From: an uncultured Pirellulales bacterium
GTDB lineage: Bacteria > Planctomycetota > Phycisphaerae > Sedimentisphaerales > Anaerohalosphaeraceae
DNA: 64,000 bases
Direction of reading: 5' to 3'
Assembly (NCBI GenBank): GCA_964537635.1
Contig: CAZICJ010000004.1
Coordinates: 11,797 to 75,796 of the forward strand
Shown here: positions 23,551 through 30,100 of the stretch, one piece after another
Numbering within the stretch: position 1 is the first letter of the stretch
Layout: every line of letters begins with the position of its first letter
Position numbers and translations under genes: made by a program
Notes under the pieces: model-generated
The model's input: the letters and a program-made list of their open reading frames with translations, nothing else
What the model was told of the DNA's origin: nothing
The model's database searches: none

Positions 23551-23600
23551 AATTGGGTTCGTTTTGCATTTTTGCATCCTTCTAAAATGGGTTCGTTTTG
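23551..23600. repeat. Dispersed TGGGTTCGTTTTG repeat (two local copies)
   Basis: aattgggttcgttttgcattttt (23551-23573) is identical to 50410-50432; second partial copy at 23588-23600. Confidence 0.7.
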
Positions 23601-23747
23601 TAAAAACAGTTCGTTGTTCATAGAAAGATAGAAACTATGAAAGCCAGGCCTCCCATTGGTTGGTCTTAGCGGATACAATGTTCCGCAATACGAGCTGGCC
23701 ACAGGGGTCGCTCAAATAGATTTGAACCTTTAACAAGGAGACCTGAC

Positions 23748-24803
23748 ATGAAGATTGTAGCAATGGATTTAGGAAAAAACAAGACCGTGGTTTGCTATTA
23801 TGACAGTGCCGATGGCGCTCATCGGTTCCTGACCGTCCTGACACAGCCCCAGGCCATTCACGATGCGCTCGTTGCCGAGCCGGCCGATCGCGTTGTGATG
23901 GAAATTGGTTCTGCCGCCGGCTGGATATATGACATGGCAAAAGCCCTCCAGATTACGACCCAGGTGGCCAACACCAATCATGAGGCGTGGCGGTGGAAGA
24001 ATGTGAAGAAAAAAGGGGATCGTGATGATGCGTTGCGGCTGGCCAGACTCAGTGCCTCCGACCAGTTGCCGCAGGTGCACATGCCCAAGCTGGAAATACG
24101 GCAAAAGCGAACCACCATCGCCTATCGTCATAGTCTTGTCGAACGCCGCACGGCAATCAAGAACAATATTCGTGCAATCCTGGATCGTCAGGGTCTGGCA
24201 ATGGCCGCCGGCCATAGCGGATGGACACAGGCAAGTATGGGCTATTTACGGTCGCTGGCCCGTCCGTTGGACCAATGCGAAGTCTCGGATTTATGGCGTG
24301 GGCTGTTATCGGTTGAATTGCAGCAGTATAATGCTATCGAGGCGGCCATCGACACGGTCCAGGCCAAGCTGGATGCGTTGGGCCAGGCAGATGAAAAAGT
24401 ACAGTTGTTACAGACGATTCCGGGTGTGGGTCCGCGTCTGGCCGAGGCGGTAGTGGCTTATCTTGATGACCCTAAACGATTTAAGAACGGCAAACAGGTC
24501 GGCAGTTATATCGGGCTTACGCCTCGCCAGTTCCAAAGCGGCTCGATGAATCGCTCCGGCGGCATCAGCGGGATGGGCAATGCGCTGGTACGAACCTTAC
24601 TGGTGGAGGTCAGTTGGCTGGGGCTTCGCCATAACCCGTGGATGCGTGCGATTTATGAACAGGTTATGCGAGGCACAAAAAGCCGCAAAAAGATAGCGAT
24701 TGTGGCGGTGGCAAGGAGGCTGCTTGTGGTCTGCTGGGCAATGCTGCGAGACAACCGGAAATGGAAAATGCCTGCCAGCGGCAACACAAAGGCTGCGGCC
24801 TGA
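23748..24803 (+). CDS. IS110-family transposase/recombinase (RuvC-like DEDD + Tnp20 domain)
   Basis: AMDLGK, VMEIG, KGDRDDA; TIPGVG, YIGLTPRQFQSG, AIVAVARRLL; RBS AAGGAG. Confidence 0.95.
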   Translation: MKIVAMDLGKNKTVVCYYDSADGAHRFLTVLTQPQAIHDALVAEPADRVVMEIGSAAGWIYDMAKALQITTQVANTNHEAWRWKNVKKKGDRDDALRLARLSASDQLPQVHMPKLEIRQKRTTIAYRHSLVERRTAIKNNIRAILDRQGLAMAAGHSGWTQASMGYLRSLARPLDQCEVSDLWRGLLSVELQQYNAIEAAIDTVQAKLDALGQADEKVQLLQTIPGVGPRLAEAVVAYLDDPKRFKNGKQVGSYIGLTPRQFQSGSMNRSGGISGMGNALVRTLLVEVSWLGLRHNPWMRAIYEQVMRGTKSRKKIAIVAVARRLLVVCWAMLRDNRKWKMPASGNTKAAA

Positions 24804-25118
24804 GAACCCGATGAGGGAGAGCGGTTCAGCAAGAATTTTCTCCCCTCAGGAGAAGAAGAAATAACTGGGCGCGACCGCCCGACTGTATTGTAATGTGGTG
24901 AATTGCGTGTGTGGAGTGTAAGGTAAAAAAGTGAAGTGCTGAAATTTGTGGATTGGCAAGACGGTATTCGGTAAATCCTATGGGCATAAAAGCTCGAGAG
25001 ATAGAATGGATGCCGTTGCAGCAGTTTGAGTGGAACTCGACGATACGATGCCCAATAGGGCCGGTCGAGAAAATCCGGATAGAAGGCTGAACCAATCACA
25101 CAAATTTTTCACTTGACG
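24804..25118 (+). ncRNA. Candidate bridge/seek RNA of the IS1111-type element
   Basis: Non-coding and structured (ggttcagc 24823/gctgaacc 25086; gggcat/atgccc; ggatt/aatcc); contains matches to the junction sequences; exact boundaries unknown. Confidence 0.55.
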
Positions 25119-25348
25119 GGCCTGGCTTCATAGAAGGATTTTAGACAGGATTAACGGGATTTACAGCATCAGGTACTTATGCAATTGTGAAAGAACAGCG
25201 GCTGGCGATTAAGGGCTTGCCAGCGTATGGAATGGGGTTCCACAATAATCAGTATTATATCATAAGAGGGTGGAAAAAGCAAGGTTGAATTGTTGACATA
25301 ATTGTATTTTTCAGGACAGGTTTTATCTTTTAATTTGCAATTATTTTA

Positions 25349-25377
25349 TTGACATATAATGGGCAATATTGTAGTAT
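25349..25377 (+). promoter_or_regulatory. Near-consensus sigma70 promoter for the large secreted protein/PEP-CTERM operon
   Basis: TTGACA-17 bp-TAGTAT with AT-rich upstream element. Confidence 0.75.
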
Positions 25378-25424
25378 AGATTACTGAAAATTAAATATTG
25401 ATAGTCCACTGGACTTGAAGCGTT

Positions 25425-25560
25425 TCAATCAAAACCGGCAAATTTTGTACAAGCGAACGCACAAGGCAGTTGCCCCGTCTGGGGCATTGCTTGCGTGTCG
25501 CTTGTAGGCCTTGCCGGGCCTTGATTGGACACAACAGAGCGATGCTCCTTTTTTGTGTAT
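25425..25560 (+). other. Long nested hairpin(s) in the 5' leader (putative cis-regulatory RNA or sRNA)
   Basis: Nested pairs caatcaa/ttgattg, ccggcaa/ttgccgg, tacaagcga/tcgcttgta, acgca/tgcgt, gcccc/ggggc; then acaca..gagc/gctc..tgtgt. Confidence 0.55.
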
Positions 25561-25634
25561 CTTGCGGAATGTCCCGACGGGCGAGAAAGGAGGTCAAATA
25601 AGAGTAGAGGGTTTTTATTTGAAAGGAAGCAGGT

Positions 25635-28600
25635 ATGGATTGGAGAAGACAAGCGGCGGGTGTTTTTTTATTTTTGGCAGGATTGGCATATTCGGCAACA
25701 TTGCCAACCAGTATCAAAGTGTTAATTGGAGACACGCAGGCACAAGGGGCAAAAACAGCTTTTTGGGGACGTTTGGATGCGGCGGGCTACTCTGATGATG
25801 GATTTTATTATGGTCCTTCGCCGAGCCATCCTGTCAGCGGGTATCATGAGTTATTATCCGGCGAATGGGGTGCAGCGGTCTATTATGACGGCATCCACAC
25901 GACGTGGATAGATCCGGTAAATCCGAACAAGGGCAAAAAAGCGATGTGGCTGACGAATCTATTTGAGTATCCCAATTGGTACACAAACAGTGATTTTGTG
26001 GTCAGCAGCGACCCAGCCAAACAGCCCCGTTCATGGGCGGACCCGAATGGCAATCCTGCACCTCAGAATGATACCGCGATTTCGTACATCGACAATGGGA
26101 CTATGGAAGTGCGGATTGATTATGAAGTGGTTGACCTGGAATTTCGAGATCCGAATTATTATCTGTGCCGTTCGCCGATGGTCTTCTTAGATAAAGAACG
26201 TCGCTGTTCCGGCGTTTTGCCTTCAGACCGGTATATTCTGCTGCAAACCTATACCTTGCGCAATATTACCGCAGAGCCTTTGACAGATGTAGAGTTTTAT
26301 CAATTTCTGCACAGTCATGGCGCGGATGAATACGGCCCGGCGGTCAATTCCACCTATACCGAACTGGCGCTGGATGACCCGTTAGCTTATTATACGCCTT
26401 ATAATCCTATTCACGAAACGGGTAATTTTCGATATGATATTACCCAATGGAATACCTACCCTCACTCGAACTCCTATCATTCAACTCATCGGGATTTTGT
26501 CGGATTCAGTTGCGCCCAAAAGCCGGACTGGATTGATACGGATGTGTATGAGGGCGGGCATTCGTATGATGAATACAAGCCGCCGCGCGGCAGTCATATC
26601 CATGTGGAATCGAGGAAGCTTAACGGCGTCAAATATATCTATGACAGTGAAGTCGGCGGGGCGATGGGGTGGAACATAGGGACACTTGACCCCAATGAAA
26701 CGGAGTCTGTAACCGTGGCTTTTATGTTTGGTTATGGAGAACCGACCTATCATACAGGTTTAAGCCTGACTAAAACGGTTGACCCCAATTATTCGCAGGT
26801 GGATTTGAATTATGAAATGGCCTACACGCTGACCTATACCAACGACAGCAGCAGCGCATTGACTAATTGCATCTTGACGGATACGCTGCCGGCGGGGGTG
26901 GACTTTGTGGAGGAAATCATCCCTCAGGCCAGTCCGCAGCCTGGGATTGCGTTGGGGATAGCGGATGTCAACGACCTTGACGAAATAACGCTGAATGTCG
27001 GGCAGAGTGTTCGGCTGTATGTGGATAAAGAGACGCTGACGGAAGATATTTACGCTTTCAGCATCGAGGCGAATATGGCCGACCCGAATTTGGGCAGCAT
27101 TGACAATGCGGAATACGACCCGAACAACCCAACTTCGGCACAGATTTTAGCCTCACCACGAACGGATTCTTTTGATTATTTTGGGCCTGGACAAACGCAG
27201 GCGGAAGGGATTATTCTGTCGGGGGCCAGTCTGGGCAATGTGATGAATGATGGCAACCTTGCCAGTTTTGTCTATACGGCGACGCAGGCCGGACATGCGC
27301 ACTTGACCTTGGTTAATTACGATGAAGCATTGACAGCACAATTGAGTGAGATGGTGATTCATCAGATTGACCCCAACGACCCGAACAGTTTACCTGCAGA
27401 ACCCAATGAGCCTGTGCAGCCGGCGCCGCCGGACTGTCCGAGGCCGAGCAATTTGGCCGCGGGTGTGTATGATGAAGCGTTGCATACGATTACATGGGAT
27501 ATTGGGACGATTGCGGCCAATTCCTGCGGGAGCGTGAGTTTTCGCGTAAAGGTCAATGAGAAATCTGAGCCGGGCGGGACACTGCATAACGAGGCGGTCT
27601 TGTCCTGCGACAGCGGGCTTGCGTTGGCGACATTGGATACATCGGTAGCATGTCGGGATGGCATTATCTATGTGGACAGATCTGCAGATGGTGCTGGCTC
27701 TGGGACAAGCTGGGCGAATGCCTATACGGATTTGCAAAAGGCGCTGACGCGGGCGGCCGGCGGCTGCGGAGAGGAAATCTGGGCGGCGCGGGGCTTGTAT
27801 TCTCCGGGCATGCAGGTGACGGATAGTTTTGTGCTGCCGGCGGGTGTGTCGGTTTACGGCGGATTTGTGGGGTGGGAGACCTCGCTCGAGCAGCGGGAGA
27901 TTGCGGCCAATCCGACGATATTGTCAGGACTGATTAGTCAAGACGATGAGGGCTATACAACTCGTAATATCACGGTTGTTATGATGGGTAACCATTCGCT
28001 GCTGGATGGAGTAACGGTAAAAGAATCTGGTGGAACTCTGGCCTCACCGGGACGCGGCATTTATGGTCAAAATGTTGATTTTATGGTTTCCAATTGTATC
28101 ATTAAAGACAATTTGCAGTATGGGATTCGTGCTGACAATGGCAATGTTTCTGCAAAGTGGTGTACGATTTCCGACAATGGTTATGACGGCATTTATTATT
28201 TTGGCAATAACAGCAAGGCGCTATCCATTGAAAATTGCCGAATTTTTGGCAACGGACAACATGGCATCAACACAAGAAATGCCTCGACAAGTATTCTCAA
28301 TAGTATCCTTTCTTCCAATGGTTCGGATAACAGCGGAACTTACTACGGCGTTTATGTATTTTATCCATCCGCTTCGCCGGTTCTGAAGAATTGTTCAGTG
28401 GTGGACAACATACATGAGGGGTGTTATTTTGTGGGCCTTGGGACGCGGTATCCCTCGATTCGCAACTGCATCCTGTGGGGCAACAAAGACAATGGTCAGC
28501 AGTTGGAAGGGTATCGGACAGCATATTATAGCTGCATCTATGACCCCAACTACCCTAACCAGACTACGCCGGACGGAACGTACCATAACATTAGCTGCAA

Positions 28601-29465
28601 TCCTGTATTTGCCGAAGGCGGCTGGCCGGAATCGGGAGTATATCGTTTGCTGGCCGCGTCGCCGTGTGTTGACAAGGGCGACCCTGCACTGTCTTACAGC
28701 AATCAGATGGATATGGACGGCGAAGACCGCGTCTATGGCTATACTGCCGATATGGGGGCGGATGAGGCCTGCGCCTGCGACGGCACTTTGACGGATGATG
28801 ATATTTATAACGAATATGATTGGGATTACGATGGATTGGTCAATCTGGCGGAGTTCAATACTTTTTCCAAAGCGTGGCTGTCGCATGACCCAAATGACCC
28901 GGCGCTGACGGACCCCAATAGCCCAATGAACGACCCGAACAGTTCCTATTATGTGTCGCTGACGGACAAGGAGCGGTGGGAGCCGATGTGTGATTTTGTC
29001 ACAAGCGGCAATAGCCAATATGTGATTGATTTGGCAGATTTGATGATTTGGGTTGAAGATTCGCCGTGGCTGTGGCATGCGTGCTGGCGGATGGATATTA
29101 CAGAAATGCTTCAGCAGCAGCAAATGATGATGAGTCTGCCGGAACAGAGCCAGCAATTGATGACACAGCAAATCGAGGCGATGCCGATGGAAACGCAACT
29201 TATTGAGACGCCAGTAGAGGCCGTTCCGATGGAAGCCGTTGCTGTTGCGGAAATACCAATTCCCGAAAAGTCAATTGAAGAACAGCTTGCCGATATCCAA
29301 GATGCGGCCAAATGGCTGGAAGAACTCTGGCTAAGTGAGCCGGAACTTCAGAGTGAAATAGACTCCGCATCGTGGAAAGAATTTATGAATGCAGTGTATG
29401 AAAATATGGAAGAACTGGAAAACTTAAACGCTCAAACCTTATCTGAATCGGAGGAATTACAATGA
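25635..29465 (+). CDS. Large secreted multidomain protein (DUF11, cohesin-like insert, right-handed beta-helix, choice-of-anchor-Q-like, dockerin-like EF hands)
   Basis: Signal peptide; LSLTKT..YTLTYTN..LTDTLPAGV; IYVD..A.G.GSGTSWANAYTDLQKAL; SPCVDKGD..DMDGEDR..DMGADE; DWDYDGLVNLAEF. Confidence 0.75.
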   Translation: MDWRRQAAGVFLFLAGLAYSATLPTSIKVLIGDTQAQGAKTAFWGRLDAAGYSDDGFYYGPSPSHPVSGYHELLSGEWGAAVYYDGIHTTWIDPVNPNKGKKAMWLTNLFEYPNWYTNSDFVVSSDPAKQPRSWADPNGNPAPQNDTAISYIDNGTMEVRIDYEVVDLEFRDPNYYLCRSPMVFLDKERRCSGVLPSDRYILLQTYTLRNITAEPLTDVEFYQFLHSHGADEYGPAVNSTYTELALDDPLAYYTPYNPIHETGNFRYDITQWNTYPHSNSYHSTHRDFVGFSCAQKPDWIDTDVYEGGHSYDEYKPPRGSHIHVESRKLNGVKYIYDSEVGGAMGWNIGTLDPNETESVTVAFMFGYGEPTYHTGLSLTKTVDPNYSQVDLNYEMAYTLTYTNDSSSALTNCILTDTLPAGVDFVEEIIPQASPQPGIALGIADVNDLDEITLNVGQSVRLYVDKETLTEDIYAFSIEANMADPNLGSIDNAEYDPNNPTSAQILASPRTDSFDYFGPGQTQAEGIILSGASLGNVMNDGNLASFVYTATQAGHAHLTLVNYDEALTAQLSEMVIHQIDPNDPNSLPAEPNEPVQPAPPDCPRPSNLAAGVYDEALHTITWDIGTIAANSCGSVSFRVKVNEKSEPGGTLHNEAVLSCDSGLALATLDTSVACRDGIIYVDRSADGAGSGTSWANAYTDLQKALTRAAGGCGEEIWAARGLYSPGMQVTDSFVLPAGVSVYGGFVGWETSLEQREIAANPTILSGLISQDDEGYTTRNITVVMMGNHSLLDGVTVKESGGTLASPGRGIYGQNVDFMVSNCIIKDNLQYGIRADNGNVSAKWCTISDNGYDGIYYFGNNSKALSIENCRIFGNGQHGINTRNASTSILNSILSSNGSDNSGTYYGVYVFYPSASPVLKNCSVVDNIHEGCYFVGLGTRYPSIRNCILWGNKDNGQQLEGYRTAYYSCIYDPNYPNQTTPDGTYHNISCNPVFAEGGWPESGVYRLLAASPCVDKGDPALSYSNQMDMDGEDRVYGYTADMGADEACACDGTLTDDDIYNEYDWDYDGLVNLAEFNTFSKAWLSHDPNDPALTDPNSPMNDPNSSYYVSLTDKERWEPMCDFVTSGNSQYVIDLADLMIWVEDSPWLWHACWRMDITEMLQQQQMMMSLPEQSQQLMTQQIEAMPMETQLIETPVEAVPMEAVAVAEIPIPEKSIEEQLADIQDAAKWLEELWLSEPELQSEIDSASWKEFMNAVYENMEELENLNAQTLSESEELQ

Positions 29466-30100
29466 AAAAGATACAGTTGCTGATGTTGATTTTATCCGCC
29501 CCCATTTGGGCAGGCTATACTTACACGATTACGGATGGGATGGATTTTGGCGCGTTGACACTCACAGGTACGCAATCTCTTTTGATGACAGGGGGGGGGG
29601 GTATTTTATTAGATGTATATTTTAATAGCTACGCAAGAATAGAACGAACAGCCCCTTATAATCAACAGATATATCCGAGTGGTGGGATAGAGCGGCTTAG
29701 TGTTGACGATCATGCCCATCTGGATTTTGCTGGGGGTGAAGTCTATCAAATTGGCGTAGGGAACTATGCTACGGCGACCATCAGCGGCGGGAAAATAACT
29801 CGCCTGGCTACCGCACAAACAGCATGGAAATGGGTTGGAGAACGCGACGGCCACTGGGAACCTAATCCCCATGTGGAAATCATCTGTCGCGAATATGCTT
29901 ATAATACCACAACCAAAAAACTGACGGGTCTTTGGAATTCGGATGCTGACAACAATCGATTATACGACCCGTTCAATATCCAGCTTGTCGATGTTGCCGG
30001 CTATTCCCCCACGATTGACAATATCAAGTTTACAATTATACCGGAGCCGATGACGCTTGCCCTGCTTGCATTGGGCGGTGTTTTGATTCGCAAAAAATGA
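29462..30100 (+). CDS. PEP-CTERM sorting-domain protein
   Basis: Signal peptide; C-terminal IPEPMTLALLALGGVLIRKK; ATGA overlap with upstream gene. Confidence 0.92.
   Translation: MKKIQLLMLILSAPIWAGYTYTITDGMDFGALTLTGTQSLLMTGGGGILLDVYFNSYARIERTAPYNQQIYPSGGIERLSVDDHAHLDFAGGEVYQIGVGNYATATISGGKITRLATAQTAWKWVGERDGHWEPNPHVEIICREYAYNTTTKKLTGLWNSDADNNRLYDPFNIQLVDVAGYSPTIDNIKFTIIPEPMTLALLALGGVLIRKK

Follow-up and report, generated by a model that had tools for sequence, protein, structure and literature searches.

Does the long intergenic region that precedes the gene of a 1276-aa secreted protein carry a regulatory RNA and, if so, of which kind? The Phycisphaerae are abundant polysaccharide degraders of anoxic sediments, digesters and guts, and to our knowledge almost nothing is known of their gene regulation. 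In the window, the whole stretch of 64,000 nucleotides analysed here, the intergenic region 25136-25634 separates an IS1111-type insertion sequence from this gene. The original prediction, made from the DNA letters, had described there a leader with a promoter, a palindrome, nested complementary blocks, a second hairpin followed by a T6 run and an orphan Shine-Dalgarno (SD) sequence, and had proposed a novel cis-regulatory RNA (attenuator, antitermination or protein-binding leader) or an independent sRNA. We found that this leader is one copy of a previously uncatalogued RNA family that is widely conserved in Phycisphaerae. The features of the leader and of its surroundings are collected in Table 1.

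The sigma-70-type promoter was found exactly where it had been announced. By itself this match in the window is not significant, the scan giving 3 sites vs 1.9 expected. Among relatives with a good sigma-70 promoter, the -10 box ended 23-26 nt before the P0 hairpin in 30 of 42 cases (25 nt in the window) and, since the promoter recurs at a fixed distance in relatives, the RNA would start at a fixed place, about 17 nt before P0. Transcription in the window would start at about 25383-25386, some 7 nt past the -10 box. The palindrome is present one base downstream of the 25402-25414 first given. It forms the P0 hairpin, with a loop CACUG nearly invariant within the order in our alignment and a C-G to U-A change in 33 of the 77 sequences. 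The nested complementary blocks proved to belong to a single rod of about 105 nt over 25419-25548, in a leader of 263 nt. The minimum free energy of this leader was -92.9 kcal/mol compared to -72.4 ± 5.1 kcal/mol for 200 dinucleotide shuffles (z = -4.07), none of which folded as stably. The T6 run was also recovered, whereas the hairpin given with it is more aptly taken as one piece of an alternative fold that involves the entire 3' half. Two mechanical ORFs of the minus strand, 25391-25735 (114 aa) and 25425-25652 (75 aa), overlap the leader; they are unlikely to be genes because one-base indels among the six copies of this genome would break their frames. A leader peptide was considered and rejected, the 5' half having no conserved start codon or frame, with 1-nt indels between copies.

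Table 1. Positions of the leader elements, helices and neighbouring genes in the window (rod, state in which both halves pair; alternative fold, state in which the 3' half pairs with itself).
Feature	Position	Strand	Basis or remark
Sigma-70-type promoter TTGACA-17-TAGTAT	25349-25377	+	promoter scan, 10/12 consensus positions
A/U-rich single-stranded 5' end, consensus ACAAUURAAUAUUGA	25383-25402	+	conserved columns, alignments A2 and A3; unpaired in both folds
P0 hairpin AGUCC-ACU-GGACU, palindrome AGTCCACTGGACT	25403-25415	+	sequence-conserved; 97.9% paired
5' half, proposed antiterminator strand	25419-25476	+	rod pair counts
Segment a of 5' half	25419-24	+	
Segment b of 5' half, with 5' strand of H5/H6	25449-60	+	
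Segment c of 5' half	25466-76	+	
Helix H3	25425-32/25521-28	+	rod
Helix H4	25435-41/25511-17	+	rod
Helices H5/H6	25449-60/25493-505	+	rod
Apical stem c:d	25466-76/25481-90	+	rod
Apical tetraloop GUCU of rod	25477-25480	+	
3' half, rod partner of 5' half or, alone, terminator-like hairpin	25481-25548	+	alternative-fold covariation
Helix d:f, 10 bp	d 25481-90/f 25539-48	+	alternative fold
Helix e:d'	e 25493-505/d' 25527-38	+	alternative fold
Tip hairpin AGGCCU-UGCC-GGGCCU	25506-21	+	alternative fold
U6 (T6) tract	25549-25554	+	directly 3' of last d:f base
Type A module, CUCCUUUUUUG pairs with GAGAAAGGAGG	25545-25594	+	MFE fold
Orphan SD AAGGAGGT	25587-25594	+	no start codon behind; inside type A helix
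Hairpin UCAAAUAA/UUAUUUGA	25594-25622	+	just 5' of true RBS; inverted repeat I12, fold; recurs in type A relatives
True RBS AAGGAAG	25623-29	+	ATG at 25635
1276-aa signal-peptide protein, DUF11 and beta-helix domains	25635-29465	+	Pfam
212-aa PEP-CTERM protein	29462-30100	+	overlaps 1276-aa gene; NCBIfam TIGR02595, 16.3 bits vs cut-off 16

The 2.7-Mb genome to which the window belongs contains six copies of the core that runs from the promoter to the T run, C4 (the window), C121, C15, C129, C44 and C93. Similarity among them spans the promoter to the start codon and ends there, the coding regions being divergent. A first covariance model, built from these six copies, gave full-length matches in 27 of 41 relatives; the complete genome G022, of the same family, is without the RNA. 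A second model was built from 86 hits and used on 301 sampled Phycisphaerae genomes; the RNA was found in 52 of them, with 1-9 copies each, and 24 of these 52 belong to other orders. The contigs returned by a pattern scan of public genomes were mostly labelled Phycisphaerae, Sedimentisphaerales, Anaerohalosphaeraceae. Two copies, L083 and L099, come from contigs of a cultured Anaerohalosphaeraceae isolate. The comparison of window positions 24500-26000 with Rfam 15 (4227 models, E <= 10) gave only chance matches, of 14-24 bits against gathering scores of 39-50 and none overlapping the rod, and nothing was found on the element in twelve other members at E <= 0.1. The view that the leader fits no recognised riboswitch class was thus borne out, and we found no description of this RNA in the literature searched.

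Covariation was counted on an alignment of 77 distinct sequences, which was fitted to the rod and not to the alternative fold. For the rod, 95.2% of the cells were paired compared to about 40% with slid partners, and compensatory changes were present at 40 of the 50 pairs, which none of 500 shuffles reached. The alternative fold exhibited 95.0% of paired cells (43-53% in slid controls), with compensatory changes at 24 of 31 pairs and 174 compensatory cells compared to 54.9 ± 11.6 in shuffles, again matched by none of 500; given how the alignment was made, the test of this fold is a conservative one. The same helices came out of an unbiased scan over every column pair, together with e:d' and the helix a:b of the 5' half, which in the alternative fold is 90.8% paired with 5 of 6 pairs compensatory. 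The segment d (GGGGCAYYG) is complementary to f (CRRUGCCC), and the resulting helix is about 96% paired, with changes including A-U to G-C and C-G to U-A. The tip hairpin (RGGCY-Y UGSC R-RGCCU) has 6 bp, overlaps H4 and is 97.1% paired, 5 of its 6 pairs being compensatory. The alternative-fold helices hold in members of other orders, where for example GGC/GCC of the tip hairpin is replaced by CCC/GGG. Since the two folds use the same strands (c:d vs d:f, H4 vs the tip hairpin), the rod and the alternative fold cannot coexist.

Other pairings were examined on the same alignment. Covariation links the loop nucleotides on either side of the 3' strand of H4, and a pseudoknot or kissing contact with H4 through this GGC/GCC pairing was dropped, as the pairing is the stem of the 6-bp tip hairpin that overlaps the H4 strand. 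A compact local hairpin GGGCA/UGCCC (d':f) was 81-83% paired, no better than shuffles, and the candidate partners of c (a:c, and the P0 loop CACUG with CAGUG) showed little or no covariation in the column-pair scan. Some loop nucleotides are conserved, such as AAAYCG-CA and the P0 loop, and most conserved positions pair in one or other of the two folds. The rod also contains conserved G-U pairs, found in 65 of 77 sequences at one basal pair; as a G-U pair is a C-A mismatch on the opposite strand, selection acts on the plus-strand RNA and not on the DNA.

The folding energies of the 77 members averaged -11.4 kcal/mol for the 5' half alone and -72.1 kcal/mol for the full rod. In 73 of them the isolated 3' half folded into a single long hairpin based on d:f. 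The energy of this half averaged -37.3 kcal/mol, with -37.1 kcal/mol for the window copy, and between the rod and the split fold the difference is about 20 kcal/mol in favour of the rod. No base separates helix d:f from the U tract; the basal helix a:f of the rod is mostly made of G-U pairs and stops 2 nt earlier. A G-U-rich strand f is what is expected for a strand that must fit two partners. Counting as a U tract any 8 nt with at least 5 U, 61 of the 77 members have one, and about 20% of the members keep both folds without it. In the predicted fold of the window copy, a weak local hairpin with the U tract can form even in the rod state.

From these features we lean towards reading the element as a cis-acting two-state transcription attenuator in the 5' leader of mRNAs for exported proteins. 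In this model, the inferred parts are termination as such, which way the switch turns and what kind of trigger turns it. An intrinsic-terminator attenuator has a GC-rich stem abutting the U tract, here d:f, with 10 bp in the window, and a mutually exclusive antiterminator maintained by selection, here the rod, which covaries as does the split fold. In the proposed mechanism, the 5' half would pair over its whole length with the 3' half and the rod would be the antiterminator; the strand before the U tract would then be held only in the weak, G-U-rich basal helix, and RNA polymerase would be expected to read through. If the 5' half were held away, the 3' half would fold alone, with d:f as its base followed by e:d' and the tip hairpin, and transcription would stop at about 25555. 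As the rod is thermodynamically favoured and nucleates first, c and d being neighbours only a tetraloop apart, the default state is probably ON, and a factor capturing the nascent 5' half would turn the leader OFF. This factor could equally be a protein that recognises the P0 hairpin, whose sequence is conserved, or a small ligand that stabilises a 5' domain, and the logic of the switch would be that of TRAP, PyrR or an OFF riboswitch. The greater stability of the rod means that the terminator fold needs a helper, and the local hairpin c:d means that the freeing of d requires c:d to be opened. Termination would not be the sole output, since the members without a U tract keep both folds.

The two folds could also be sequential and not alternative, RNase III cutting the rod and the 3' half refolding into the long hairpin, which would shield the new 5' end in the manner of the ompA 5' stem-loop. 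The conservation of both folds, including in the members devoid of a U tract, agrees with such processing, as do the length and near continuity of the rod duplex and the nature of the controlled genes, which probably code for abundant surface proteins and have strong promoters. However, processing accounts neither for the U tract placed right at the foot of d:f in 61 of 77 members nor for the G-U pairs by which the basal strand f accommodates two partners, and we judge it unlikely.

The genes behind the RNA were then considered. About 85% of the copies are directly upstream of a same-strand gene. From the match to the next same-strand ORF there are usually 35-120 nt; the start codon of some members comes as early as about 30-45 nt past the match or past the U tract, so that a separate promoter would not fit. 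A signal peptide was detected by a crude test at the start of 58 of 72 downstream ORFs; several more are evident by eye, and about 85% of the downstream genes encode signal-peptide proteins. In Pfam, the commonest downstream families are DUF11 (16), Beta_helix (11), PEP-CTERM (7-8) and DUF1565 (6). This context bears on the possibility that the element is a multicopy trans-acting sRNA of about 170 nt, with its own terminator and its 5' end ACAAUUAAAUAUUGA as seed, the expression of the next gene being incidental read-through. The layout is indeed the classical one, namely an own promoter, an unpaired conserved 5' end, a structured body and a hairpin with a U tract; several copies occur per genome, and a few of them (L039, L042) have no nearby ORF. 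The constant position upstream of same-strand genes, the very short distance to some start codons, the conservation of RBS modules together with the RNA and the functional coherence of the downstream genes are all against it, and the second conserved fold would have no explanation, which makes an sRNA quite improbable.

The search for homologues suggested with the original prediction found relatives carrying the RNA upstream of secreted-protein genes, with covariation. A novel cis-regulatory RNA is supported both by this covariation and by the position of the element, which follows a promoter and precedes the start codons of genes for secreted proteins or linked to PEP-CTERM. The link to PEP-CTERM genes that had been put forward holds for exported proteins generally but is not specific to PEP-CTERM, DNA methylases and LuxR-type regulators being found as well. 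An exosortase is present in 40 of 41 relatives, with or without the RNA, and its co-occurrence is uninformative because it is near-universal irrespective of the RNA.

DNA methyltransferases are encoded downstream of at least five copies. Those with a methylase gene (EcoRI_methylase, N6_N4_Mtase) at G000:C93:851-1027 (L017), L021, L094 and L113 are without the usual sigma-70 promoter and have a distinct tail, AUUGCGCAYUUCUUCAUC...AAAACGCCA, the end of which is complementary to the 5' basal strand of the rod. In the other orders, a GerE/LuxR-type HTH protein of about 100 aa is found behind the RNA in at least 9 of 20 loci (L134, L135, L138, L139, L140, L143, L145, L147 and L148, from genomes G662, G440, G483, G455, G513, G497, G682 and G653), and 7 of the 8 such proteins scanned against Pfam exceed the cut-off. 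These copies have a different 5' hairpin, UUGACGCG..CGCGUCAAG, and the HTH gene starts 7-40 nt after the U tract; in the three loci read further (L135, L143, L145) an exported or prepilin-like ORF comes next, about 390-490 nt after the match. The window's genome has a weak LuxR homologue (C51:596-805), which is without the leader. The gene set being so heterogeneous, with surface proteins, DNA methylases and LuxR-type regulators, it gives no pointer to a ligand.

Between the U tract and the start codon, the copies differ by their tail. In the type A tail, found in four copies of this genome and in several elsewhere, a purine block that holds the orphan SD is the predicted pairing partner of the U tract and its flanks; this block is followed by a hairpin and then by the true RBS. 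Among the four type A copies of this genome, conservation extends through the RBS into the first codons. Copies of other types have either the conserved tail described for the methylase genes or a short A-rich spacer. The orphan SD was correctly located and has no start codon; its reading as an SD did not hold, since the motif is predicted to pair with the U tract and relatives do not preserve it as an SD. RNAalifold applied to 13 related modules paired the U tract with the AAGGAGG block, and some relatives read AAAGGGCAUC in place of the SD, so that the pairing is kept and the SD is lost. As only the pairing is preserved by this variant, we favour a role of the orphan SD in pairing over one in ribosome binding.

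The STAB-SD of the cry3A leader of Bacillus thuringiensis is a non-initiating Shine-Dalgarno sequence that stabilises the mRNA. The leader of the window resembles it by a perfect SD, AAGGAGG, which precedes the real RBS by about 45 nt and is followed by no start codon of its own. Unlike the STAB-SD, the motif has a predicted pairing with the U tract, gives way to AAAGGGCAUC in relatives and is restricted to one subtype of the family; a STAB-SD, which would be accessible and conserved as an SD, was rejected on the predicted pairing and this replacement.

A related proposal is that of a constitutive leader acting on translation or on the fate of the message, either as a protein platform coupling the mRNAs to the export machinery or as a ribosome stand-by site using the orphan SD. 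The P0 hairpin and the conserved internal loops resemble protein-binding sites, the RNA is associated with exported proteins as a class, and both the orphan SD and a hairpin lie directly 5' of the true RBS. The predicted pairing of this SD with the U tract and its replacement in related modules speak against this proposal, as do the copies that precede cytoplasmic DNA methylases and LuxR-type regulators; neither form explains the terminator geometry and the dual-partner design, and we give this proposal little credence.

The insertion sequence upstream of the leader raised the question of a DNA element. It spans about 23628-25135 and is inserted, at about 23632-25134, in one copy of a dispersed repeat, as indicated by C26 (G000:C26:2842-3026), an uninterrupted repeat that joins 23631 to 25135 and corresponds to the empty site. 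In the genome we counted at least 20 copies of this repeat, whose length is about 150-250 nt; its parts in the window, 25135-25284 and 23585-23631, are upstream of the leader promoter; in C121 and C129 both the repeat and the leader are present and the IS is absent. Like an IS1111-type seekRNA or an IS110 bridge RNA, the leader is a structured non-coding RNA found downstream of a DEDD transposase gene in the same window. Unlike them, it is not part of the IS, whose guide RNA was placed at 24804-25118 and whose end is about 250 nt before the leader. An IS110 bridge RNA was rejected: the leader, with its start at about 25383, lies beyond the end of the IS at 25135, and five more copies have no transposase gene. 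A MITE or a part of the dispersed repeat was rejected as well, the similarity stopping at the start codon and the repeat being a separate one at 25135-25284. Among the outcomes that would have counted against the original prediction, neither a known Rfam family nor a MITE was matched, and covariation was very strong. A DNA-level element (MITE, part of the adjacent IS1111 element as bridge or seek RNA, or recombination site) is very improbable: the element is multicopy, an IS110/IS1111 transposase gene lies 550 nt upstream (Pfam) and many matches are near contig ends, but the IS ends at 25135 with an uninterrupted target repeat at C26, the five other leader copies adjoin no IS, the G-U pairs show selection on the plus-strand RNA, the similarity between copies is bounded by the start codon and not by terminal repeats, and the family spans a class in a fixed promoter-gene context.

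Under the attenuator reading, the closest analogues would be the TRAP-controlled trp leader and the PyrR-controlled pyr leaders of Bacillus. By analogy, the leader would share with them a mutually exclusive antiterminator and terminator, a default antiterminator whose upstream strand is sequestered by a factor, and a terminator stem abutting the U tract. It differs from them in having no sequence or Rfam kinship and no visible (G/U)AG repeat array or PyrR binding loop, in being a full-length rod that pairs both arms of an unusually long 68-nt terminator hairpin, and in a regulon of exported proteins where theirs is a biosynthetic pathway. The c-di-GMP-I (GEMM, RF01051) riboswitches precede genes for PEP-CTERM and other surface proteins, with four of them within 18 kb in Methylophaga nitratireducenticrescens GP59 (PMC12530212). 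Like these riboswitches, the RNA is a multicopy structured leader in front of PEP-CTERM or secreted-protein genes and of unrelated genes, with a proposed terminator as expression platform. In contrast to their two-hairpin aptamer it forms a rod, and it gave no cmscan match to them at E <= 10. A search with the RF01051 model found this riboswitch neither in the window's genome nor in 19 of 21 relatives; two GGDEF genes are present in this genome, so that a second-messenger trigger is conceivable, although the context for it is thin.

As a family, the RNA is strongly supported; it is absent from Rfam 15 and from the literature searched, and appears as a variant of the attenuator or riboswitch kind with an unusual design in which a rod is opposed to a long hairpin. 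With up to nine copies per genome heading genes of large secreted or cell-surface proteins, it is a plausible master control point of surface building. Going further, and only tentatively, the family may constitute an RNA switch of a new class, controlled by a ligand or a protein, and act as the gate to a large part of the exported surface proteome of Sedimentisphaerales (PEP-CTERM, DUF11, beta-helix) and, in other Phycisphaerae orders, to a small LuxR-type regulator ahead of secreted-protein genes; a single global signal, for instance a second messenger or an envelope or attachment cue, could then act on all of them, with the full-length rod as the antiterminator of the 68-nt terminator hairpin. 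The strong covariation of the two folds makes the switch hypotheses directly testable by mutants and in vitro transcription, and the trigger, once found, could prove to be a new riboswitch ligand or point to a new RNA-binding regulator. A new Rfam entry can now be submitted for the family.

Some copies deserve a separate mention. Public MAG contigs labelled Syntrophaceae, Odoribacter and Candidatus Kuenenia stuttgartiensis (L053, L070, L060, L091, L106) carry high-scoring copies, and the bit scores of the 'Kuenenia' MAG are those of G029, which the genome collection places in the window's own order; these labels likely result from mis-binning or mislabelling. At C121 (L014), the ORF behind the leader starts like the 930-aa protein of C15 (MEKT.ETKRAVV...), no open frame of at least 100 aa follows, and two PEP-CTERM genes come next; the locus looks like the remnant of a recombination between leader-headed loci. 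Finally, complete leaders were found in tandem on the same strand at L036 (973-1161 and 1501-1675) and L099 (4941-5117 and 5194-5371), and also in L077, L096, G005:C4:196941-197371 and G027:C38, an arrangement that recalls tandem riboswitches.
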